NCBI GenBank assembly: GCA_964016885.1
Contig: OZ024740.1
Span: 427,738,001-427,802,000, forward strand
DNA: 64,000 nt
Source of the DNA: Eledone cirrhosa
Taxonomy: Eukaryota
Direction: 5' to 3'
Shown here one piece after another: positions 1-20,300 of the stretch (its first letter is position 1; every line of letters starts with the position of its first letter). Under the pieces are notes generated by a model, which ran no database searches, was not told the DNA's origin, and saw nothing but the letters and a program-made list of their open reading frames with translations. The translations under genes and the position numbers were made by a program.

Positions 1-1641
1 TATCTCACTGTACCATAGTTATATAAAACTCTACTCTATCTCACTGTACCATAGTTATATAAAACTCTACCCTATCTCACTGTACCATAGTTATATAAAA
101 CAGTACCCTATCTCACTGTACCATAGTTATATAAAACTCTACCCTATCTCACTGTACCATAGTTATATAAAACACTACCCTATCTCACTGTACCATAGTT
201 ATATAAAACTCTACCCTATCGCACTGTACCATAGTTATATAAAACTCTACCCTATCTCAGTGTTGTATAGTTATATAAAACTCTACACTATCTCACTGTA
301 CCATAGTTATATAAAACTCTACCCTATCTCACTGTACCATAGTTATATAAAACTCTACCCTATCTCACTGTACCATAGTTATATAAAACTCTACCCTATC
401 TCAGTGTTGTATAGTTATATAAAACTCTACCCTATCTCACTGTACCATAGTTATATAAACTCTACCCTATCTCACTGTACCATAGTTATATAAAACTCTA
501 CCCTATCTCAGTGTACCATAGTTATATAAAACTCTACCCTATCTCAGTGTACCATAGTTATATAAAACTCTACCCTATCTCAGTGTACCATAGTTATATA
601 AAACTCTACCCTATCTCACTGTACCATAGTTATATAAATCTCTACCCTATCTCACTGTACCTTAGTTATATAAAACTCTACCCTATCTCAGTGTACCATA
701 GTTATATAAATCTCTACCCTATCTCACTGTACTATAGTTATATAAAACTCTACCCTATCTCACTGTACCATAGTTATATAAAACTCTACTCTATCTCACT
801 GTACCATAGTTATATAAAACTCTACCCTATCTCACTGTACCATAGTTATATAAAACAGTACCCTATCTCACTGTACCATAGTTATATAAAACTCTACCCT
901 ATCTCACTGTACCATAGTTATATAAAACACTACCCTATCTCACTGTACCATAGTTATATAAAACTCTACCCTATCTCACTGTACCATAGTTATATAAAAC
1001 TCTACCCTATCTCAGTGTTGTATAGTTATATAAAACTCTACACTATCTCACTGTACCATAGTTATATAAAACTCTACCCTATCTCACTGTACCATAGTTA
1101 TATAAAACTCTACCCTATCTCACTGTACCATAGTTATATAAAACTCTACCCTATCTCAGTGTTGTATAGTTATATAAAACTCTACCCTATCTCACTGTAC
1201 CATAGTTATATAAACTCTACCCTATCTCACTGTACCATAGTTATATAAAACTCTACCCTATCTCAGTGTACCATAGTTATATAAAACTCTACCCTATCTC
1301 AGTGTACCATAGTTATATAAAACTCTACCCTATCTCACTGTACCATAGTTATATAAAACTCTACCCTATCTCAGTGTACCATAGTTATATAAAACTCTAC
1401 CCTATCTCACTGTACCATAGTTATATAAAACTCTACCCTATCTCAGTGCACCATAGTTATAGAAAACTCTACCTTATCTTAGTGTACCATAGTTATATAA
1501 AACTCTACCCTATCTCAGTGTTGTATAGTTATATAAAACTCTACCCTATCTCACTGTACCATAGTTATATAAAACTCTACCCTATCTCACTGTACCATAG
1601 TTGTATACAACTCTACCCTATCTCACTGTACCATAGTTATA
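1..1641. repeat. 36-bp tandem satellite array, left segment (about 45 monomers, open at the window edge)
   Basis: Head-to-tail copies of TATCTCACTGTACCATAGTTATATAAAACTCTACCC, mostly the CACT variant; two 35-bp monomers (AAAA>AAA at 457-459 and 1212-1214). Confidence 0.99.
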
Positions 1642-2596
1642 CTAGACATGAAAAATGCGCAAGCTCAAAAGTGCCACAGAATGTTATAATAAACCTTCAA
1701 AAGTGTGGGACTAGAGTTGTTGCTAAAAAATATTGTAATCATTATATATCGTACATTCTGTGGCATCCTTTATAAAAATAGCTTAAACCAACGAAGCCTT
1801 TATTTTTACGCTATTTCACTTAGTTAATTCTTAGAGTGTAACATATAAAAATATGATTTACAACTATAAAATAAATTAATTAATATAATAACAGAGCTGC
1901 GGAGCTGAAATTTAGGAAATAATGGAGTATTGGATCCTGAGTTGGAGCCAGTCAATTTTTGACCGACTCCGCAGCCCTGTATAATACATTTCATATTAAA
2001 GTTATTAATAAACCTATTTTACACTTCATGCAAATTACCACGAGATATTGATATTAGATATAAGATACAGCGCAATATCTACAGCTGTAAAAGTACGAAA
2101 GCGAAGTAATAATAAGTGGCTTAAGGTAATTCCAATATGAAAGTTTGTAGTGATAAAAATTTGATAATGCAATACGATTGTTAATATTATAGTTCTATGA
2201 AAATGTAACAATAGATAACTAAATTATTTTACTATTAGTATATTTAAGAAATTATCATTATAGATTTGATCGTTCATATAAGCATCATATTAAGTTTCAA
2301 CACAATTATTTTGTTACTATGAGTATATGATAATAATATTACGTAATTATTTATAGCTGTTATTACATTAAACATAGATGTATTTATTTTTATATGTTAC
2401 ACTCTAAGAATTAACTAAGTGAAATAGCGTAAAAATAAAGGCTTCGTTGGTTTAAGCTATTTTTATAAAGGATGCCACAGAATGTACGATATATAATGAT
2501 TACAATATTTTTTAGCAACAACTCTAGTCCCACACTTTTGAAGGTTTATTATAACATTCTGTGGCACTTTTGAGCTTGCGCATTTTTCATGTCTAG
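1642..2596. repeat. 212-bp perfect inverted repeat (arms 1642-1853 and 2385-2596, 531-bp spacer)
   Basis: The left arm ctagacatgaaaaatgcgcaagctc...gtaacatataaaaata is the reverse complement of tatttttatatgttac...gagcttgcgcatttttcatgtctag. I saw no mismatch or indel by eye, and both end pairs sum to 4238. Confidence 0.97.
1892..1979. mobile_element. 88-bp hAT-like MITE / internally deleted DNA transposon
   Basis: TIRs are cagagctgcggag (1892-1904) and ctccgcagccctg (1967-1979), 12/13 complementary, with CAG termini. Flanking 8-mers tataataa (1884-1891) and tataatac (1980-1987) match 7/8, consistent with an 8-bp hAT TSD. It forms a GC-richer island in AT-rich DNA. Confidence 0.65.
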
Positions 2597-3153
2597 TTTA
2601 ATATTTTTTTAAGGCAACGCTTGTAATAACTCTAGTTAAACAGGATATATATTAATAATAAATTATCGTTGTAATGTAATTAGATTATGTAATTGTTATT
2701 ATAAATTATCTTATAAATATTAGTGTAAGATGTATAAAAATATTTTCAGACTTTTAATATAAACAACTACAAAAAACAATCAATATTAAATCAATATATT
2801 ATACATAATAGAAAACATAAAATATACAATACAAAAACAAAATATTTACATACATTTGCAATTATCAGTGTATATACATTTTCTTTATATTCCCTGAGCA
2901 AATTAATAAGATTTGTTTTTATTGTACATAATTTGATGACTTGTTGGAGTGTATTAAAAGATAGCAACAATTTGTGATTAAATTGTTATCTTAAGCAACT
3001 CACTTTTTAATAGTTGTTGGCTGAGCGAAATTGTAAAAGCCTATGAGCAAATATAAAAAAAAATACACAAACAACATTTCCTTGTGTTATTACAACATTA
3101 GATAAAATAATTGAGCAATGTCGTTATATTTTGCTCTTATTGCACATTAATAG

Positions 3154-3321
3154 TGTTTCTATTTTTCGGCACAAATCCATTACGGCAGTCCATTACTGGT
3201 ACTTTATTTTATCGAATTAGTAAGTATGAAAGTCGAAGTTAACCTCGGCAGGATTTGAACTTAGAATGCAAAGGACCATAACAATACTGCAAAGCATGGT
3301 GTCTGACGCTCTACCAATACT
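3154..3321 (-). mobile_element. Diverged tRNA-derived SINE copy, slightly 5'-truncated
   Basis: Colinear with 4017-4202: cattactggtactttattttatcga, aagttaacctcggc, ggatttgaact (B box on the minus strand), aaagcatgg, ctctacc. No TSD seen. Confidence 0.8.
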
Positions 3322-3711
3322 TGTGTTGAGCTGGTCATTAATTTATGGTGGTCGTGCGTGAAGTAGAGCAATCGCTAGTTGAAATATTATGAACAAAACA
3401 TTTTTATTTGCCGAAGAACATATTTTCAATACTGTTTGTGAATGTGACGAAGGAAATACATTCTGATATGGAACAGTGTACAAAGTGTGTCTGTGAATAA
3501 CATAATGTTACCTCATGTTGTTGTCAAGACATAATGGATTTCGTTTATCCAGTTAGAAGATGAAACCTAGCCATCTCGGATTAGTTATATTTCATGCCAT
3601 GTGTAAACGTGTTTGAGGATAGCAAAATATGCGCGTTAATTATAATAATTAGTTAATAATATTACAAAATATACCTAATTAAACTCTTTGCTTGAAATTT
3701 TATCATTCTTC

Positions 3712-3714
<3 letters not shown>

Positions 3715-3788
<74 letters not shown>
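3715..3788. repeat. Compound microsatellite (TA)18(GA)19
   Basis: Pure TA run 3715-3750 directly followed by a pure GA run 3751-3788. Confidence 0.98.
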
Positions 3789-3792
<4 letters not shown>

Positions 3793-4016
3793 TCTAGTCC
3801 TTCGCTCAAGATTAATCTATAAGTTTAGATGTTTGCCTTCGTTTAAGTAAATATTACAGTAAGATTTTTAATATAAACAACTGCAAAAAACAATTAATAT
3901 TAAAACGAAAAAATTATCAATGATAAAAGAAGCGGATGCAACTTTTTTTTTTATAAAGTTATATTCCTGTTTCTTTAAAGAACATTTCATTTTTGTTCTA
4001 TTGTAGGCGAAATAAT

Positions 4017-4202
4017 TGTTTCTACTTTAGGCACAAGGCCAGCAAATTACCCAGTACATTACTGGTACTTTATTTTATCGACCCCGTAAGGATGAAAGGC
4101 AAAGTTAACCTCGGCGGGATTTGAACTCAGACTGTAAAGGGACGTAACTATGCTAGAAAGCATGGCGTCCAACCCTCTACCGATACTGCCAATTCACCGC
4201 CC
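4017..4202 (-). mobile_element. tRNA-derived SINE with intact 5' head and 15-bp target-site duplication
   Basis: Perfect TSD tgtaggcgaaataat at 4002-4016 and 4203-4217. The minus strand starts GGGCGGTGAATTGGCAGTATCGG (A-box-like, 4180-4191), has B box GAGTTCAAATCC (4117-4128), then the core GCCTTTCATCCTTACGGGGTCGATAAAATAAAGTACCAGT. Confidence 0.9.
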
Positions 4203-4349
4203 TGTAGGCGAAATAATGCAATGGTTTAATAGGGAAGATATAACTTACGAATTATGTCTCTAACCGTGTAACGCTTTTTAAGTAGATAACTACAATTGAA
4301 AATACTAAAGAAATGGAACCAACAATTCAATTTGAAAGTCGTCTAGTGA

Positions 4350-4401
4350 CAGTGTATTACTGGTACTTTATTTTATCGACCCCGTAACGATGAAAGGCAA
4401 A
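4350..4401 (-). mobile_element. SINE core fragment (same family)
   Basis: attactggtactttattttatcgaccccgtaacgatgaaaggcaaa is nearly identical to 4058-4103. Confidence 0.85.
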
Positions 4402-4430
4402 AATGCAAATGCTTAAAATTTAAATTGCCT

Positions 4431-4530
4431 TAATTCTATCGTCTGCTGTTTCATTAAAGGGAGATTATCGTCTGTATGTAATTCTATCGTCTACTGTTCC
4501 ACTAAACAGATATACCTCCACTATCGTCTC
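4431..4530. repeat. Short degenerate tandem duplication (period 48) with recurring TATCGTCT
   Basis: taattctatcgtct[g/a]ctgtt[t/c]ca[t/c]taaa at 4431-4458 and 4479-4506; tatcgtct occurs four times in about 100 bp. Confidence 0.75.
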
Positions 4531-4764
4531 TATTTATACATTTTAACTTATAACTTATACACATTTGATTTGAAATATTTTATCTAGTCCCCCCTCTCAA
4601 TATTATGATGATTTCTTTCGAATGAAACAGTTCTAGTCCTGTAGAAGCCATTTATATATATAATTGAACTGAGTTAAAAATTCACAATATTTATAATTAA
4701 ATAAGCTCATATATATATGTGTGTATTTATCTGTTTATTGTATTATATATAATGTGTGTATATA

Positions 4765-4795
4765 CAGGATGTCCCCCAAAAATATATACACACTT
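4765..4795. mobile_element. Possible solo Tc1/mariner-type terminal inverted repeat remnant
   Basis: TA followed by CAGGATGTCCCCCAAAAATATATACACACTT resembles TA|CAGGGTGTCCC-type termini (recalled similarity only). No convincing partner TIR found. Confidence 0.3.
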
Positions 4796-4900
4796 CAACA
4801 GCATTCTAATAACTATTGCCTGTACAGGTAATCAAAGTGTCAATCGAATGTTAGTTTCGTGTTTTAACAGTACAAATTTACAATACACACATAAAACCAG

Positions 4901-4950
4901 TGTATATACATACATGAGTGTGTATACACATACATGAATGTGTATATACA
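4901..4950. repeat. 20-bp minisatellite, 2.5 copies
   Basis: tgtatatacatacatgagtg / tgtatacacatacatgaatg / tgtatataca. Confidence 0.8.
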
Positions 4951-5009
4951 ATATATATGTATATATATATATAGACACATGTATTCACGGTGCAACGGTA
5001 CATTAAAAT

Positions 5010-5250
5010 ATAGATGCGGGAGAGGGGGTGTATATATAGGGGCGCTGGGGATAAAGGAGTGTAAAGCGTGTGTAATTGATATATTGAAGGAGAGGAGCGT
5101 GCAGCGATAGAGTAACAAATATATAGAGAGGGGGAGAGATGGTATTGAAGGGGAGGAGTGCAAAGCGAAAGAGTAAGAGATATAAATAGAGACGGAACAG
5201 ATAGAGAGAAACAGGCGTAAGTAACAGTGGAAGAGATATAGAGAGAGGTA
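5010..5250. repeat. Purine (GA)-rich low-complexity tract
   Basis: Strong G/A strand bias (gagagggggagagatgg, gaaggggaggagtg, gatagagagaaac). This explains the Leu/Ser/Pro-rich minus-strand ORFs. Confidence 0.7.
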
Positions 5251-5253
5251 CTC

Positions 5254-5278
5254 TGATTGGTTGAAAATTAGCCAATGA
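5254..5278. promoter_or_regulatory. Pair of oppositely oriented CCAAT-box motifs near the TC end of the element
   Basis: tgATTGGtt (ATTGG at 5256-5260) and agCCAATga (CCAAT at 5272-5276) both fit the NF-Y-type RRCCAATSR pattern. Function is not demonstrated. Confidence 0.35.
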
Positions 5279-5334
5279 CATACGATCACCACCACGGCTA
5301 TCCCCGAAAAATTTTTAAAGAAGCTAGGCATATA

Positions 5335-5388
5335 TGTTAGAACACGAAAAGTGAACATTCTGTGTTTCACACTTTTCGTGTTCTAACA
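5335..5388. other. Terminal hairpin: perfect 19-bp stem, 16-nt loop, 2 bp from the element end
   Basis: tgttagaacacgaaaagtg (5335-5353) is the reverse complement of cacttttcgtgttctaaca (5370-5388); the loop is aacattctgtgtttca. Confidence 0.95.
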
Positions 5389-5390
5389 GA

Positions 5391-8300
5391 TAAAACTCTA
5401 CCCAATCTCACTGTACCATAGTTATATAAAACTCTACATTATCTCAGTGTACCATAGTTATATAAAACTCTACCCTATCTCAGTGTACCATAGTTATATA
5501 AAACTCTACCCTATTTCACTGTACCATAGTTGTATAAAACTCTACCCTATCTCAGTGTACCATAGTTATATAAAACTCTACCCTATCTCACTGTACCATA
5601 GTTATATAAAACTCAACCCTATCTCAGTGTACCATAGTTATATAAAACTCTACCCTATCTCACTGTACCATAGTTATATAAATCTCTACCCTATCTCACT
5701 GTACCATAGTTATATAAAACTCTACCCTATCTCAGTGTACCATAGTTATATAAATCTCTACCCTATCTCACTGTACCATAGTTGTATAAAACTCTACCCT
5801 ATCTCACTGTACCATAGTTATATAAAACTCTACTCTAGCTCACTGTACCATAGTTATATAAAACTCTACCCTATCTCACTGTACCATAGTTATATAAAAC
5901 TCTACCCTATCTCACTGTACCATAGTTATATAAAACTCTACCCTATCTCAGTGTTGTATAGTTATATAAAACTCTACACTATCTCACTGTACCATAGTTA
6001 TATAAAACTCTACCCTATCTCACTGTACCATAGTTATATAAAACTCTACCCTATCTCACTGTACCATAGTTATATAAAACTCTACCCTATCTCAGTGTTG
6101 TATAGTTATATAAAACTCTACCCTATCTCACTGTACCATAGTTATATAAAACTCTACTCTATCTCACTGTACCATAGTTATATAAAACTCTACCCTATCT
6201 CACTGTACCATAGTTATATAAAACTCTACCCTATCTCACTGTACCATAGTTATATAAAACTCTACCCTATCTCACTGTACCATAGTTATATAAAACTCTA
6301 CTCTATCTCACTGTACCATAGTTATATAAAACTCTACCCTATCTCACTGTACCATAGTTATATAAAACTCTACACTATCTCACTGTACCATAGTTATATA
6401 AAACACTACCCTATCTCACTGTACCATAGTTATATAAAACTCTACCCTATCTCACTGTACCATAGTTATATAAAACTCTACCCTATCTCAGTGTTGTATA
6501 GTTATATAAAACTCTACACTATCTCACTGTACCATAGTTATATAAAACTCTACCCTATCTCACTGTACCATAGTTATATAAAACTCTACCCTATCTCACT
6601 GTACCATAGTTATATAAAACTCTACCCTATCTCAGTGTTGTATAGTTATATAAAACTCTACCCTATCTCACTGTACCATAGTTATATAAACTCTACCCTA
6701 TCTCACTGTACCATAGTTATATACAACTCTACCCTATCTCAGTGTACAATAGTTATATAAAACTCTACCCTATCTCAGTGTTGTATAGTTATATAAAACT
6801 CTACCCTATCTCACTGTACCATAGTTATATAAAACTCTATCCTATCTCAGTGTACCATAGTTATATAAAACTCTACCCTATCTCACTGTACCATAGTTAT
6901 AGAAAACTCTACCCTATCTTAGTGTACCATAGTTATATAAAACTCTACCCTATCTCAGTGTTGTATAGTTATATAAAACTCTACCCTATCTCACTGTACC
7001 ATAGTTATATAAAACTCTACCCTATCTCACTGAACCATAGTTGTATACAACTCTACCCTATCTCACAGTACCATAGTTATATAAAACTCTACCCTATCTC
7101 ACTGTACCATAGTTATATAAATCTCTACCCTATCTCACTGTACCATAGTTATATAAAACTCTACACTATCTCAGTGTACCATAGTTATATAAAACTCTAC
7201 CCTATCTCTGTGTACCATAGTTATATAAAACTCTACCCTATCTCACTGTACCATAGTTGTATAAAACTCTACCCTATCTCACTGTACCATAGTTATATAA
7301 AACTCTACCCTATCTCACTGTACCATAGTTGTATACAACTCTACCCTATCTCACTGCACCATAGTTATATAAAACTCTACCCTATCTCACTGTACCATAG
7401 TTATATAAATCTCTACCCTATCTCACTCTACCATAGTTATATAAAACTCTACACTATCTCAGTGTACCATAGTTATATAAAACTCTACCCTATCTCAGTG
7501 TACCATAGTTATATAAAACTCTACCCTATCTCACTGTACCATAGTTGTATAAAACTCTACCCTATCTCAGTGTACCATAGTTATATAAAACTCTACCCTA
7601 TCTCACTGTACCATAGTTATATAAAACTCTACCCTATCTCGGTGTACCATAGTTATATAAAACTCTACCCTATCTCAGTGATGTATAGTTATATAAAACT
7701 GTACGCTATCACAGTATACCATAGTTATATAAAACTCTACCCTATCTCTGTGTACCATAGTTATATAAAACTCTACCCTATCTCACTCTACCATAGTTAT
7801 ATAAAACTCTACCCTATCTCAGTGTACCATAGTTATATAAAACTCTACTCTATCTCACTGTACCATAGTTATATAAAACTCTACCCTATCTCACTGTACC
7901 ATAGTTATATAAAACTCTACCCTATCTCAGTGTACCATAGTTATATAAAACTCTACTCTATCTCACTGTACCATAGTTATATAAAACTCTACCCTATCTC
8001 ACTGTACCATAGTTATATAAAACTCTACCCTATCTCACTGTACCATAGTTATATAAAACTCTACACTATCTCACTGTACCATAGTTATATAAAACACTAC
8101 CCTATCTCACTGTACCATAGTTATATAAAACTCTACCCTATCTCACTGTACCATAGTTATATAAAACTCTACCCTATCTCAGTGTTGTATAGTTATATAA
8201 AACTCTACACTATCTCACTGTACCATAGTTATATAAAACTCTACCCTATCTCACTGTACCATAGTTATATAAAACTCTACCCTATCTCACTGTACCATAG

Positions 8301-11300
8301 TTATATAAAACTCTACCCTATCTCAGTGTTGTATAGTTATATAAAACTCTACCCTATCTCACTGTACCATAGTTATATAAATCTCTACCCTATCTCACTC
8401 TACCATAGTTATATAAAACTCTACACTATCTCAGTGTACCATAGTTATATAAAACTCTACCCTATCTCAGTGTACCATAGTTATATAAAACTCTACCCTA
8501 TCTCACTGTACCATAGTTGTATAAAACTCTACCCTATCTCAGTGTACCATAGTTATATAAAACTCTACCCTATCTCACTGTACCATAGTTATATAAAACT
8601 CTACCCTATCTCGGTGTACCATAGTTATATAAAACTCTACCCTATCTCAGTGATGTATAGTTATATAAAACTGTACGCTATCACAGTATACCATAGTTAT
8701 ATAAAACTCTACCCTATCTCTGTGTACCATAGTTATATAAAACTCTACCCTATCTCACTCTACCATAGTTATATAAAACTCTACCCTATCTCAGTGTACC
8801 ATAGTTATATAAAACTCTACTCTATCTCACTGTACCATAGTTATATAAAACTCTACCCTATCTCACTGTACCATAGTTATATAAAACTCTACCCTATCTC
8901 AGTGTACCATAGTTATATAAAACTCTACTCTATCTCACTGTACCATAGTTATATAAAACTCTACCCTATCTCACTGTACCATAGTTATATAAAACTCTAC
9001 CCTATCTCACTGTACCATAGTTATGTAAAACTCTACCCTATCTCAGTGTACCATAGTTATATAAAACTCTACCCTATCTCACTGTACCATGGTTATATAA
9101 AAATTTACCCTATCTCAGTGTACCATAGTTATATAAAACTCTACCCTATATCACTCTACCATAGTTATATAAAACTCTACCCTATCTCAGTGTACCATAG
9201 TTATATAAAACTCTACCCTATCTCACTCTACCATAGATATATAAAACTCTACCCTATCTCAGTGCACCATAGTTATAGAAAACTCTACCCTATCTCAGTG
9301 TACCATAGTTATATAAAACTCTACCCTATCTCAGTGTACCATAGTTATATAAAACTCTACCCTATCTCAGTGTTGTATAGTTATATAAAACTCTACCCTA
9401 TCTCAGTGTACCATAGTTATATAAAACTCTACCCTATCTCACTGTTGTATAGTTATATAAAACTCTACCCTATCTCAGTGTACCATAGTTATATAAAACT
9501 CTACCCTATCTCAGTGTTGTATAGTTATATAAAACTCTACCCTATCTCAGTGTACCATAGTTATATAAAACTCTACCCTATCTCAGTGTACCATAGTTAT
9601 ATAAAACTCTACCCTATCTCAGTGTACCATAGTTATATAAAACTCTACCCTATCTCAGAGTACGATAGTTATATAAAACTCTACCCTATCTCAGTGTTGT
9701 ATAGTTATATAAAACACTACCCTATCTCACTGTACCATAGTTATATAAAACTCTACCCTATCTCAGTGTACCATAGTTATATAAAACTCTACCCTATCTC
9801 AGTGTTGTATAGTTATATAAAACTCTACCCTATCTCACTGTACCATAGTTATGTAAAACTCTACCCTATCTCAGTGTACCATAGTTATATAAAACTCTAC
9901 CCTATCTCACTGTACCATAGTTATATAAAACTCTACCCTATCTCAGTGTACCATAGTTATATAAAACTCTACCCTATCTCAGTGTTGTATAGTTATATAA
10001 AACTCTACCCTATCTCAGTGTACCATAGTTATATAAAACTCTACCCTATCTCACTGTTGTATAGTTATATAAAACTCTACCCTATCTCAGTGTACCATAG
10101 TTATGTAAAACTCTACCCTATCTCAGTGTACCATAGTTATATAAAACTCTACCCTATCTCACTGTTGTATAGTTATATAAAACTCTACCCTATCTCAGTG
10201 TACCATAGTTATATAAAACTCTACCCTATCTCAGTGTTGTATAGTTATATAAAACTCTACCCTATCTCACTGTACCATAGTTATGTAAAACTCTACCCTA
10301 TCTCAGTGTACCATAGTTATATAAAACTCTACCCTATCTCACTGTACCATAGTTATATAAAACTCTACCCTATCTCAGTGTACCATAGTTATATAAAACT
10401 CTACCTTATCTCAGTGTTGTATAGTTATATAAAACTCTACCCTATCTCAGTGTACCATAGTTATATAAAACTCTACCCTATCTCACTGTTGTATAGTTAT
10501 ATAAAACTCTACCCTATCTCAGTGTACCATAGTTATATAAAACTCTACCCTATCTCAGTGTTGTATAGTTATATAAAAATTTACCCTATCTCAGTGTACC
10601 ATAGTTATATAAAACTCTACCCTATCTCACTGTACTATAGTTATATAAAACTCTACCCTATCTCACTGTACCATAGTTATATAAAACTCTACTCTATCTC
10701 ACTGTACCATAGTTATATAAAACTCTACCCTATCTCACTGTACCATAGTTATATAAAACTCTACCCTATCTCACTGTACCATAGTTATATAAAACTCTAC
10801 CCTATCTCACTGTACCATAGTTATATAAAACTCTACTCTATCTCACTGTACCATAGTTATATAAAACTCTACCCTATCTCACTGTACCATAGTTATATAA
10901 AACTCTACCCTATCTCACTGTACCATAGTTATATAAAACACTACCCTATCTCACTGTACCATAGTTATATAAAACTCTACCCTATCTCACTGTACCATAG
11001 TTATATAAAACTCTACCCTATCTCAGTGTTGTATAGTTATATAAAACTCTACACTATCTCACTGTACCATAGTTATATAAAACTCTACCCTATCTCACTG
11101 TACCATAGTTATATAAAACTCTACCCTATCTCACTGTACCATAGTTATATAAAACTCTACCCTATCTCAGTGTTGTATAGTTATATAAAACTCTACCCTA
11201 TCTCACTGTACCATAGTTATATAAACTCTACCCTATCTCACTGTACCATAGTTATATACAACTCTACCCTATCTCAGTGTACAATAGTTATATAAAACTC

Positions 11301-14300
11301 TACCCTATCTCAGTGTTGTATAGTTATATAAAACTCTACCCTATCTCACTGTACCATAGTTATATAAAACTCTATCCTATCTCAGTGTACCATAGTTATA
11401 TAAAACTCTACCCTATCTCACTGTACCATAGTTATATAAAACTCTACCCTATCTCAGTGCACCATAGTTATAGAAAACTCTACCCTATCTTAGTGTACCA
11501 TAGTTATATAAAACTCTACCCTATCTCAGTGTTGTATAGTTATATAAAACTCTACCCTATCTCACTGTACCATAGTTATATAAAACTCTACCCTATCTCA
11601 CTGTACCATAGTTGTATACAACTCTACCCTATCTCACTGTACCATAGTTATATAAAACTCTACCCTATCTCACTGTACCATAGTTATATAAAACTCTACA
11701 CTATCTCAGTGTACCATAGTTATATAAAACTCTACCCTATCTCAGTGTACCATAGTTATATAAAACTCTACCCTATCTCACTGTACCATAGTTGTATAAA
11801 ACTCTACCCTATCTCAGTGTACCATAGTTATATAAAACTCTACTCTATCTCACTGTACCATAGTTATATAAAACTCTACCCTATCTCAGTGTACCATAGT
11901 TATATAAAACTCTACCCTATCTCAGTGATGTATAGTTATATAAAACTGTACGCTATCACAGTATACCATAGTTATATAAAACTCTACCCTATCTCTGTGT
12001 ACCATAGTTATATAAAACTCTACCCTATCTCACTCTACCATAGTTATATAAAACTCTACCCTATCTCAGTGTACCATAGTTATATAAAACTCTACTCTAT
12101 CTCACTGTACCATAGTTATATAAAACTCTACCCTATCTCACTGTACCATAGTTATATAAAACTCTACCCTATCTCAGTGTACCATAGTTATATAAAACTC
12201 TACTCCATCTCACTGTACCATAGTTATATAAAACTCTACCCTATCTCACTGTACCATAGTTATATAAAACTCTACCCTATCTCACTGTACCATAGTTATG
12301 TAAAACTCTACCCTATCTCAGTGTACCATAGTTATATAAAACTCTACCCTATCTCACTGTACCATGGTTATATAAAAATTTACCCTATCTCAGTGTACCA
12401 TAGTTATATAAAACTCTACCCTATCTCACTCTACCATAGTTATATAAAACTCTACCCTATCTCAGTGTACCATAGTTATATAAAACTCTACCCTATCTCA
12501 CTCTACCATAGATATATAAAACTCTACCCTATCTCAGTGCACCATAGTTATAGAAAACTCTACCCTATCTCAGTGTACCATAGTTATATAAAACTCTACC
12601 CTATCTCAGTGTACCATAGTTATATAAAACTCTACCCTATCTCAGTGTTGTATAGTTATATAAAACTCTACCCTATCTCAGTGTACCATAGTTATATAAA
12701 ACTCTACCCTATCTCACTGTTGTATAGTTATATAAAACTCTACCCTATCTCAGTGTACCATAGTTATATAAAACTCTACCCTATCTCAGTGTTGTATAGT
12801 TATATAAAACTCTACCCTATCTCAGTGTACCATAGTTATATAAAACTCTACCCTATCTCAGTGTACCATAGTTATATAAAACTCTACCCTATCTCAGTGT
12901 ACCATAGTTATATAAAACTCTACCCTATCTCAGAGTACCATAGTTATATAAAACTCTACCCTATCTCAGTGTTGTATAGTTATATAAAACACTACCCTAT
13001 CTCACTGTACCATAGTTATATAAAACTCTACCCTATCTCAGTGTACCATAGTTATATAAAACTCTACCCTATCTCAGTGTTGTATAGTTATATAAAACTC
13101 TACCCAATCTCACTGTACCATAGTTATGTAAAACTCTACCCTATCTCAGTGTACCATAGTTATATAAAACTCTACCCTATCTCACTGTACCATAGTTATA
13201 TAAAACTCTACCCTATCTCAGTGTACCATAGTTATATAAAACTCTACCCTATCTCAGTGTTGTATAGTTATATAAAACTCTACCCTATCTCAGTGTACCA
13301 TAGTTATATAAAACTCTACCCTATCTCACTGTTGTATAGTTATATAAAACTCTACCCTATCTCAGTGTACCATAGTTATGTAAAACTCTACCCTATCTCA
13401 GTGTACCATAGTTATATAAAACTCTACCCTATCTCACTGTTGTATAGTTATATAAAACTCTACCCTATCTCAGTGTACCATAGTTATATAAAACTCTACC
13501 CTATCTCAGTGTTGTATAGTTATATAAAACTCTACCCTATCTCACTGTACCATAGTTATGTAAAACTCTACCCTATCTCAGTGTACCATAGTTATATAAA
13601 ACTCTACCCTATCTCACTGTACCATAGTTATATAAAACTCTACCCTATCTCAGTGTACCATAGTTATATAAAACTCTACCCTATCTCAGTGTTGTATAGT
13701 TATATAAAACTCTACCCTATCTCAGTGTACCATAGTTATATAAAACTCTACCCTATCTCACTGTTGTATAGTTATATAAAACTCTACCCTATCTCAGTGT
13801 ACCATAGTTATATAAAACTCTACCCTATCTCAGTGTTGTATAGTTATATAAAAATTTACCCTATCTCAGTGTACCATAGTTATATAAAACTCTACCCTAT
13901 CTCACTGTACTATAGTTATATAAAACTCTACCCTATCTCACTGTACCATAGTTATATAAAACTCTACTCTATCTCACTGTACCATAGTTATATAAAACTC
14001 TACCCTATCTCACTGTACCATAGTTATATAAAACTCTACCCTATCTCACTGTACCATAGTTATATAAAACTCTACCCTATCTCACTGTACCATAGTTATA
14101 TAAAACTCTACTCTATCTCACTGTACCATAGTTATATAAAACTCTACCCTATCTCACTGTACCATAGTTATATAAAACTCTACCCTATCTCACTGTACCA
14201 TAGTTATATAAAACACTACCCTATCTCACAGTACCATAGTTATATAAAACTCTACCCTATCTCACTGTACCATAGTTATATAAATCTCTACCCTATCTCA

Positions 14301-17300: not shown

Positions 17301-20300
17301 TATATAAAACTCTACCCTATCTCACTGTACCATAGTTATATAAAACTCTACCCTATCTCAGTGTTGTATAGTTATATAAAACTCTACCCTATCTCACTGT
17401 ACCATAGTTATATAAACTCTACCCTATCTCACTGTACCATAGTTATATACAACTCTACCCTATCTCAGTGTACAATAGTTATATAAAACTCTACCCTATC
17501 TCAGTGTTGTATAGTTATATAAAACTCTACCCTATCTCACTGTACCATAGTTATATAAAACTCTATCCTATCTCAGTGTACCATAGTTATATAAAACTCT
17601 ACCCTATCTCACTGTACCATAGTTATATAAAACTCTACCCTATCTCAGTGCACCATAGTTATAGAAAACTCTACCCTATCTTAGTGTACCATAGTTATAT
17701 AAAACTCTACCCTATCTCAGTGTTGTATAGTTATATAAAACTCTACCCTATCTCACTGTACCATAGTTATATAAAACTCTACCCTATCTCACTGTACCAT
17801 AGTTGTATACAACTCTACCCTATCTCACTGTACCATAGTTATATAAAACTCTACCCTATCTCACTGTACCATAGTTATATAAAACTCTACACTATCTCAG
17901 TGTACCATAGTTATATAAAACTCTACCCTATCTCAGTGTACCATAGTTATATAAAACTCTACCCTATCTCACTGTACCATAGTTGTATAAAACTCTACCC
18001 TATCTCAGTGTACCATAGTTATATAAAACTCTACCCTATCTCACTGTACCATAGTTATATAAAACTCTACCCTATCTCAGTGTACCATAGTTATATAAAA
18101 CTCTACCCTATCTCAGTGATGTATAGTTATATAAAACTGTACGCTATCACAGTATACCATAGTTATATAAAACTCTACCCTATCTCTGTGTACCATAGTT
18201 ATATAAAACTCTACCCTATCTCACTCTACCATAGTTATATAAAACTCTACCCTATCTCAGTGTACCATAGTTATATAAAACTCTACTCTATCTCACTGTA
18301 CCATAGTTATATAAAACTCTACCCTATCTCACTGTACCATAGTTATATAAAACTCTACCCTATCTCAGTGTACCATAGTTATATAAAACTCTACTCCATC
18401 TCACTGTACCATAGTTATATAAAACTCTACCCTATCTCACTGTACCATAGTTATATAAAACTCTACCCTATCTCACTGTACCATAGTTATGTAAAACTCT
18501 ACCCTATCTCAGTGTACCATAGTTATATAAAACTCTACCCTATCTCACTGTACCATGGTTATATAAAAATTTACCCTATCTCAGTGTACCATAGTTATAT
18601 AAAACTCTACCCTATCTCACTCTACCATAGTTATATAAAACTCTACCCTATCTCAGTGTACCATAGTTATATAAAACTCTACCCTATCTCACTCTACCAT
18701 AGATATATAAAACTCTACCCTATCTCAGTGCACCATAGTTATAGAAAACTCTACCCTATCTCAGTGTACCATAGTTATATAAAACTCTACCCTATCTCAG
18801 TGTACCATAGTTATATAAAACTCTACCCTATCTCAGTGTTGTATAGTTATATAAAACTCTACCCTATCTCAGTGTACCATAGTTATATAAAACTCTACCC
18901 TATCTCACTGTTGTATAGTTATATAAAACTCTACCCTATCTCAGTGTACCATAGTTATATAAAACTCTACCCTATCTCAGTGTTGTATAGTTATATAAAA
19001 CTCTACCCTATCTCAGTGTACCATAGTTATATAAAACTCTACCCTATCTCAGTGTACCATAGTTATATAAAACTCTACCCTATCTCAGTGTACCATAGTT
19101 ATATAAAACTCTACCCTATCTCAGAGTACCATAGTTATATAAAACTCTACCCTATCTCAGTGTTGTATAGTTATATAAAACACTACCCTATCTCACTGTA
19201 CCATAGTTATATAAAACTCTACTCTATCTCAGTGTACCATAGTTATATAAAACTCTACCCTATCTCAGTGTTGTATAGTTATATAAAACTCTACCCAATC
19301 TCACTGTACCATAGTTATGTAAAACTCTACCCTATCTCAGTGTACCATAGTTATATAAAACTCTACCCTATCTCACTGTACCATAGTTATATAAAACTCT
19401 ACCCTATCTCAGTGTACCATAGTTATATAAAACTCTACCCTATCTCAGTGTTGTATAGTTATATAAAACTCTACCCTATCTCAGTGTACCATAGTTATAT
19501 AAAACTCTACCCTATCTCACTGTTGTATAGTTATATAAAACTCTACCCTATCTCAGTGTACCATAGTTATGTAAAACTCTACCCTATCTCAGTGTACCAT
19601 AGTTATATAAAACTCTACCCTATCTCACTGTTGTATAGTTATATAAAACTCTACCCTATCTCAGTGTACCATAGTTATATAAAACTCTACCCTATCTCAG
19701 TGTTGTATAGTTATATAAAACTCTACCCTATCTCACTGTACCATAGTTATGTAAAACTCTACCCTATCTCAGTGTACCATAGTTATATAAAACTCTACCC
19801 TATCTCACTGTACCATAGTTATATAAAACTCTACCCTATCTCAGTGTACCATAGTTATATAAAACTCTACCCTATCTCAGTGTTGTATAGTTATATAAAA
19901 CTCTACCCTATCTCAGTGTACCATAGTTATATAAAACTCTACCCTATCTCACTGTTGTATAGTTATATAAAACACTACCCTATCTCAGTGTACCATAGTT
20001 ATATAAAACTCTACCCTATCTCAGTGTTGTATAGTTATATAAAAATTTACCCTATCTCAGTGTACCATAGTTATATAAAACTCTACCCTATCTCACTGTA
20101 CTATAGTTATATAAAACTCTACCCTATCTCACTGTACCATAGTTATATAAAACTCTACTCTATCTCACTGTACCATAGTTATATAAAACTCTACCCTATC
20201 TCACTGTACCATAGTTATATAAAACTCTACCCTATCTCACTGTACCATAGTTATATAAAACTCTACCCTATCTCACTGTACCATAGTTATATAAAACTCT

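Follow-up and report, generated by a model that had tools for sequence, protein, structure and literature searches.

The stretch of DNA that we analyzed (the window) comprises 64,000 nucleotides of the genome of Eledone cirrhosa (contig OZ024740.1 of assembly GCA_964016885.1, forward-strand positions 427,738,001 to 427,802,000). A 36-bp satellite fills the whole window, with the sole exception of a 3,749-bp insert at positions 1642-5390. The insert is a non-autonomous rolling-circle element on the minus strand, with its 5'-TC at 5390 and its CTAG-3' at 1642. The family to which it belongs is HLE2 (the Helentron/Helitron2 branch) by its protein, its asymmetric inverted repeat, and its 5' hairpin, and HLE1-like by its TC...CTAG ends and its insertion between A and T (A^T).

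On the plus strand, the junctions read ...GTTATA|CTAG at 1641/1642 and ...CAGA|TAAAAC at 5390/5391; that is, the insert is A|TC...CTAG|T on the minus strand, flanked by a host A (5391, T on the plus strand) and a host T (1641, A on the plus strand). The satellite occupies 1-1641 on the left, where it runs on beyond the window for 10 kb or more upstream, and it resumes in phase on the right (5391-64000). When we tiled the array with monomers, a monomer boundary coincided exactly with the insertion junction, and 35-bp marker monomers were located at 1175, 6651, 11186, and 17377. A first-pass annotation, made from the letters of the window alone, had described a monomer split at A^T by a minus-strand TC...CTAG insert, and had argued from the spacing of these markers (429 bp from marker to insertion; 1,727 = 48 x 36 - 1 between markers, net of the insert) that the insertion was precise. 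The junction letters and the tiling bear this out. That annotation also placed the empty sites within the window. The sites at 11652|11653 and 17843|17844 are real, but they are only cousins of the filled site: across 432 bp on the left and 432 bp on the right, they have 7 + 21 and 7 + 20 mismatches, respectively (28/864 and 27/864). The best empty sites, at window coordinates -1705 and -5734, precede the window by less than 10 kb and are spaced by about 4,029 bp. Compared to the filled site, they have 0/432 mismatches on the left and 1/432 on the right (1/864), with no change in length, so no base was gained or lost and no duplication was made. The median mismatch across all in-phase satellite positions was 42 per 600 bp, versus 1 for the upstream empty sites. 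The insertion into the satellite is younger than the roughly 4-kb higher-order duplication upstream. In itself it is ordinary, and it serves only as a recent marker for the satellite. We also scored the monomer's 8 A^T steps with a profile of target sites derived from 45 other copies of the element; the inserted site ranked first by a narrow margin (5.0 versus 4.7 for the next), which does not imply that the satellite is targeted. The higher-order period of the satellite is not constant along the array (locus L070 and window 1-64000): it is about 4,029 bp upstream of the window and about 6,191 bp from the marker at 11186 to that at 17377, and further variant blocks lie farther right.

Searching the genome for DUF6570 gave 54 matches. 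We fetched 18 of these with their flanks, and 13 belong to the family of an autonomous parent that shares both ends of the insert. The parent copies are 8.0-13.1 kb long, mostly 12.8-12.9 kb; of five that we compared, four are 99.4-99.8% alike, and the fifth is about 97% identical in the first 2 kb. All 13 start at A|TC; the 3' end could be seen in 12, and 11 of these finish with CTAG|T. An unbroken frame of 2,224 or 2,239 amino acids is present in 7 of 12 copies. Because this open reading frame (ORF) runs from the TC end, TC is the 5' end, which also gives the direction of the window copy. Over both arms, the parent and the short element share 98-100% identity. The window copy consists of the first 1.6 kb of the parent (98.7%) fused to the last 2.0 kb (99.2%), plus a short insertion. 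The internal-deletion junction is at 3633-3637, where about 9.3 kb, including the transposase ORF, was removed; ACGC is found at both breakpoints. The first-pass annotation's reading of the insert as a non-autonomous member of the rolling-circle superfamily thus holds. Its word "composite" is an overstatement, since the interior consists of untranslated DNA of the parent itself across one 9.3-kb deletion, with a 186-bp insertion that came later.

The parent's protein matches DUF6570 (64 bits, versus a cut-off of 24.3), Helitron_like_N, PIF1, and, at the C terminus, UCH in Pfam. The same search found no apurinic/apyrimidinic (AP) endonuclease (no match to Exo_endo_phos) and no DDE transposase, nor were SET or TIR domains seen in this protein. 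The words HVH, Y..Y..K, and Walker A are present in 7/7 full-length frames, and FWR precedes Rep motif 2, as in Helentrons. In a tree of the Rep region, five HLE1 proteins from the Eledone genome split from all others (Shimodaira-Hasegawa-like approximate likelihood ratio test [SH-aLRT], 100). Five endonuclease-bearing proteins group together (SH-aLRT, 99), and both families that we describe here fall in an endonuclease-less group (SH-aLRT, 96). As judged from its sequence, the parent's transposase is of the HLE2 type. The first-pass annotation had asked for a RepHel-encoding partner, and the 12.9-kb parent is one; it had also called the insert a canonical Helitron, that is, HLE1, which does not stand, given the partner's type (DUF6570, FWR, and the tree) and a hairpin at the 5' rather than the 3' end. 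None of the 23 homologues returned is a named sequence from an oomycete or a fungus. A profile search contributed one protein, and the Atlas also confirmed the family, with no informative taxa. The relatives P0001, P0012, and P0016 have no endonuclease. The closest relative in the database, P0001 (40% identity, with UCH), is labelled as a gammaproteobacterial metagenome protein and lies on a 7-kb contig; it is likely animal DNA in a bacterial bin.

The insert belongs to a set of about 650 very young copies that are 0.16% apart: relative to the window copy, 34 copies had a median of 5 differences per ~3,127 aligned bases. Genome-wide, exact matches number 640 for the 5' end, 1,354 for the 3' arm (two per element), and 369 for the deletion junction. 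A search with the 5' 111 bp gave 687 candidates, and the 40 that were scored were all 100% identical. The 39 other loci that we fetched were picked by identity to the window's 5' end, which over-represents its subfamily and leaves the 3' end unbiased. All 39 carry the whole element, so the two ends co-occur elsewhere; the 3' end is exact in 36, and in the other 3 it has 1-4 bases missing or changed. Of 50 5' ends on the first 187 Mb of contig 1, 48 are accompanied by a 3' arm at most 15 kb away, with length classes near 3.5, 3.7, and 5.5-5.9 kb. Unpaired 3' matches are mostly one-arm mismatches or older subfamilies (8/8 examined).

Both ends were in view for 51 copies, of which 47 end at CTAG. 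We dropped 6 (4 with 1-4 terminal bases altered and 2 with a doubled 5' end); the remaining 45, with intact single ends, all lie at A^T in TA-rich surroundings. Because TA flanks can mimic a target duplication, we looked for empty paralogues. These were present among the fetched loci for 6 of 38 other copies: 4 are clean, with no gain or loss, and 2 are uninformative because they lie inside TA runs. Across the junctions, suffix-prefix identity equals that of shuffled pairs. No two of 36 copies compared share a 3' flank, so there is no sign of 3' read-through among them. Two copies lie in tandem and in the same direction, 811 bp apart (L150/L058, contig C2:205.52 Mb), and the flank that follows is not repeated in the spacer between them. 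Pieces of the element (compared with window 1560-5470) are also found, at more than 99% identity, in sequencing runs that carry four organism labels and come from three studies, which may reflect close kin, horizontal transfer, or contamination. In two of these runs (X1 and X2), depth is low, and the contigs diverge from the window at the deletion junction (3637) and do not have the 186-bp insertion, like the parent.

This 186-bp insertion, which we take to be SINE-like (short interspersed element), occupies 4002-4217 together with a flanking 15-bp duplication (4002-4016 and 4203-4217). It is present in 27 of 39 sampled copies, is absent from the parent, and has very high depth in four runs. 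An older, diverged copy of the same repeat at 3154-3321 was inherited from the parent's 3' region. The (TA)18(AG)19 microsatellite at 3715-3788 is also a parental inheritance, and it is the chief cause of length differences among copies.

The 5' end of the window copy folds into a hairpin (5335-5388, minus strand) that starts 2 nt inside the end and has a perfect 19-bp stem (5370-5388 with 5335-5353) and a 16-nt loop. Its fold is predicted at -21.9 kcal/mol, and 0 of 200 shuffles were as good (z score, -8.6). The 3' end has no comparable hairpin: the last 50 nt fold at -1.0 kcal/mol, and 191 of 200 shuffles were as good (z score, +1.3). An Rfam search gave only sub-threshold hairpin matches. 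The loop carries ACAGAATGTT (5354-5364, minus strand), and its complement lies 34-44 nt from the CTAG end (1675-1685, minus strand), with no hairpin after it. These are the halves of an asymmetric inverted repeat, which is an HLE2 feature; it is 11 bp in the window copy, 10 bp in the parent, and 12 bp in a second family described below. In an older 1.2-kb subfamily (944 candidates), the stem differs and the loop word is identical. A few copies have doubled 5' ends: the first 53 bp are doubled in tandem in 2 of 39 copies (L045 and L061), a second 5' end lies 77 bp away at one locus (contig C1:1309106 and 1309183), and a locus of the old subfamily (L165) shows a similar doubling.

At the 3' end, the element's last 212 bp (outer arm, 1642-1853, minus strand) recur about 0.5 kb inside the element as a perfect inverted copy (inner arm, 2385-2596, plus strand), which ends exactly at CTAG and is followed by T. 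With the 531-bp spacer between them, the arms form a foldback of 955 bp. When we compared the window's lineage to the old subfamily (16 old copies out of 30 fetched, leaving out 6 segmental duplicates and 8 without both arms), the base at all 8 diagnostic columns was that of the window's lineage in both arms. Thus, the foldback arms evolve together. Both arms are exact in 46 of 54 3' clusters, and the spacer has the reverse orientation at 2 of 67 loci (L247-L248 and L091/L139). The inner arm is absent from 2 of 12 long copies and from one short copy, all of which have normal ends; in the two long copies (L237-L238 and L243-L244), the deletions share one endpoint, which lies 187 bp from the 3' end, and differ in their left breakpoints. 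Most likely, the inner copy began as an old head-to-head self-insertion, and the arms have most likely been kept identical by arm-to-arm conversion. In the literature that we searched, which did not extend to Repbase, Dfam, or subscription papers, we found no report of a Helitron with a conserved inverted copy of its 3' end.

A second HLE2-UCH family in the same genome is 11.2 kb long, has 49% protein identity to the first, and has 430 exact matches to its 5' pattern. Full copies are at about C13:18885149-18896352 (L221-L222) and C10:33071760-33082928 (L223-L224); the ORF is broken by stops in both. The second family starts at A|TC in 22 of 25 copies and ends at CTAG|T in both full copies, and one short relative ends at CTGG|T. 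It has a 5' hairpin with a compensatory stem pair (17 G-C, 6 C-G, and 2 unpaired; n = 25) and no 3' hairpin (z score, -0.6), and its asymmetric repeat is perfect. It also has a 188-bp inverted copy of its own 3' end, whose inner flank is homologous to that of family 1.

We compared these families to published systems, which are described here from the accessible parts of the cited papers. Proto-Helentron-Pi of Phytophthora infestans likewise has an HLE2 RepHel with DUF6570 and no AP endonuclease, a 3' CTAG, an A^T target without duplication, a 5' stem-loop, and a short inverted repeat (PMC4067079, PMC11417382). However, it starts with TT instead of TC, and its 5' repeat lies 3.6 kb inside the element, whereas in the Eledone families the repeat is in or just behind the terminal hairpin. 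The UCH fusion, the 3' foldback, and the animal host also set the Eledone families apart, by description. In the accessible parts of the HELIANO paper, proto-Helentrons are reported only in Phytophthora, with nothing similar in 404 genomes; UCH is enriched in HLE2 subgroups c and d, and DUF6570 is an HLE2 marker (PMC11417382). In Fusarium oxysporum, FoHeli3-5 (HLE2-reverse) likewise have a 5' hairpin and no 3' hairpin, and FoHeli elements have an asymmetric inverted repeat 20-40 bp from the 3' end and doubled short 5' ends; head-to-head self-insertion has been proposed for them (Chellapan et al. 2016, PMC5148889). Unlike the Eledone family, FoHeli elements are fungal and have neither a CTAG end nor a strict A^T target: FoHeli3-5 begin with TGCCT and terminate in CTCCTGT, and FoHeli1-2 end with ATTTT (PMC5148889). 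Helitron2 and Helentron elements share the transposase branch, asymmetric inverted repeats, and a 5' hairpin with the Eledone family, but their target is TT or T(T/C) and their 3' end has a hairpin (PMC3627910, PMC4067079), and Helentrons carry an AP endonuclease fused to RepHel where the Eledone family has UCH (PMC4067079). Helraiser, a bat HLE1 element, likewise has TC...CTAG ends, inserts at A^T next to an AT-rich 3' flank, and makes no duplication, but it has a 3' hairpin as its terminator and a transposase from the other branch (Grabundzija et al. 2016, PMC4778049). Finally, the lepidopteran Hel-2 is an animal non-autonomous element with TC...CTAG, A/T flanks, and 5' and subterminal inverted repeats (Coates 2015, PMC4344730). 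It is about 250 bp, with a 3' stem-loop and, in the accessible text, no autonomous partner named, in contrast to the Eledone family. Hel-2 is a partial animal precedent that lowers the novelty of the end plan. The accessible parts of seven other papers (PMC13342296, PMC12001565, PMC13085455, PMC13282606, PMC6544945, PMC8788227, and PMC11934779) describe no such element. For full elements, an HLE2 enzyme with HLE1 ends and target is reported only from a water mould in the literature that we searched; Repbase or Dfam may hold such a family.

We directly observed the shared ends, the A^T target, the lack of a duplication, the burst of copies, and the domains and direction of the parent. In our view, the window insert is probably a young deletion derivative of the 12.9-kb HLE2-type TC...CTAG element; that element's enzyme likely copied it by the rolling-circle route and placed it at an A^T step in the satellite. 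By analogy to Helraiser, the HUH domain would nick at the 5' TC, the helicase would peel off one strand, and a circle (as also suggested by FoHeli1) would form and then be joined between A and T. As the ends are precise and yet there is no 3' hairpin, the asymmetric inverted repeat is our likeliest candidate for the stop signal, by analogy to Helitron2: the 3' half would be read together with the loop-held 5' half, and the strand would be cut about 33 nt beyond the 3' half, at CTAG. Bao and Jurka (2013, PMC3627910) proposed that pairing of inverted repeats signals the endpoint in Helitron2, whereas Helraiser uses a 3' hairpin, whose loss raises read-through (PMC4778049, PMC5876387).

Several observations weigh against this explanation. 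Rep motif 2 has an A between its G and P (RGAPH), neither the S listed for Helentrons nor the L listed for Helitrons (Thomas et al. 2014, PMC4067079). The Rep tree is a quick search of 30 rows (none dropped) whose HLE2 rows are labelled by Pfam domains only and which includes no named proto-Helentron, FoHeli, or Helitron2 sequence. There was no end-to-end circle joint among the joints listed (15 of 1,337). When the ends of family 1 are co-folded, the hairpin stays shut and the inverted-repeat duplex does not form, although the program cannot model loop-loop pairing; in family 2, the asymmetric repeat pairs freely. The halves of the repeat may instead act as two protein-binding sites. None of the contigs listed spans either satellite junction. 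Also, the search for partners with PF14214 found 3,704 HLE1-type Rep candidates in the genome, so cross-mobilization by an HLE1 enzyme is formally possible.

The insert could instead be a canonical HLE1 non-autonomous element that is moved by one of these many transposases. Its TC...CTAG ends, A^T target, AT-rich 3' flank, and lack of duplication are like those of Helraiser (PMC4778049), but it has no 3' hairpin, and the only coding elements that we found with both ends are of the HLE2 type. We fetched 5 of the 150 HLE1 elements listed with their flanks, and none has these ends as its own. We consider this explanation very unlikely, and the parent element already largely refutes it. An old 1.2-kb relative near one of the HLE1 elements is a separate neighbour and not that element's end. 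Another HLE1 element encodes an intact RepHel of 1,712 amino acids with 11 STPR repeat stretches (contig C2:315526175; L234:676-5814). Contigs C19, C20, and C27 contain clusters of near-identical HLE1 Rep matches at a spacing of 100-200 kb, probably large tandem or segmental duplications. A cut-and-paste element with a TA duplication, whose 955-bp foldback would be a miniature inverted-repeat transposable element (MITE), is suggested by the long, perfect inverted arms and by the TA that precedes 42 of 45 copies and follows 39 of 45. We looked for a TA duplication, which the first-pass annotation had named as evidence against a Helitron, and the empty sites of the window copy and of 4 others keep both TAs, which refutes it. 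In 6 of 45 copies the element is followed by TT, the junctions show only the shuffled level of identity, the parent encodes RepHel and no DDE transposase, and the element does not carry terminal inverted repeats at its two ends. The element-side flank of the inner arm is constant, so the foldback does not move alone. The chance that this is a cut-and-paste element is close to nil. Misassembly might have put a dispersed repeat inside the satellite: the flanks are highly repetitive, and no junction-spanning read was seen among those listed. It is excluded only indirectly, by the same two ends at 39/39 other loci; the window copy has, to the base, the ends typical of its family, the site is the top-scoring A^T step, and the satellite's variant series continues in phase. 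We think that an assembly error is highly improbable.

The same element might also depend on its foldback. On the peeled strand, the final 212 nt would fold onto the inner copy, and this would mark the end or prime the second strand. Parvovirus hairpins prime second-strand synthesis. In two families that are 49% identical in protein, the inner copy ends exactly at CTAG and has homologous inner flanks, and the joint evolution and frequent exact identity of the arms would also fit a function. However, gene conversion between nearby inverted arms explains their identity without any function, and copies that do not have the inner arm, which they may have lost either before or after they inserted, have normal ends. 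Obligatory hairpin transfer would give an even mix of spacer orientations, and an obligatory flip-flop is rejected by the rarity of flipped spacers. In addition, Helraiser requires double-stranded donors (PMC5876387). On balance, we doubt that the foldback is functional, without dismissing the idea.

More tentatively, the Eledone families may represent an active animal lineage of HLE2 elements, apart from Helentrons and the oomycete proto-Helentron, in which the 3' hairpin has been replaced by a two-part device: a repeat presented by the 5' hairpin, and a conserved 3' foldback that marks or primes the end. We lean against this proposal at present.

The family has implications for how such elements are annotated. 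Annotation based on ends calls TC...CTRR at A^T HLE1 and short inverted repeats at TT HLE2. The Eledone family breaks this rule in an animal, at hundreds of copies, and so end-based counts mix the HLE1 and HLE2 branches. Also, an HLE2 element without an endonuclease has kept (or regained) A^T, which supports the idea that TT targeting and changed ends arrived with the captured endonuclease. In the accessible parts of the literature that we covered, the mechanism has been dissected only for HLE1, namely for Helraiser with its 3' hairpin terminator, whereas the ends of the Eledone elements are precise without one. The intact, near-identical transposase genes permit a direct test of the 2013 proposal of inverted-repeat pairing. 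If the lineage with a two-part device is real, then the seven intact copies would be a ready counterpart to Helraiser for studying how HLE2 elements start, stop, and choose their targets.

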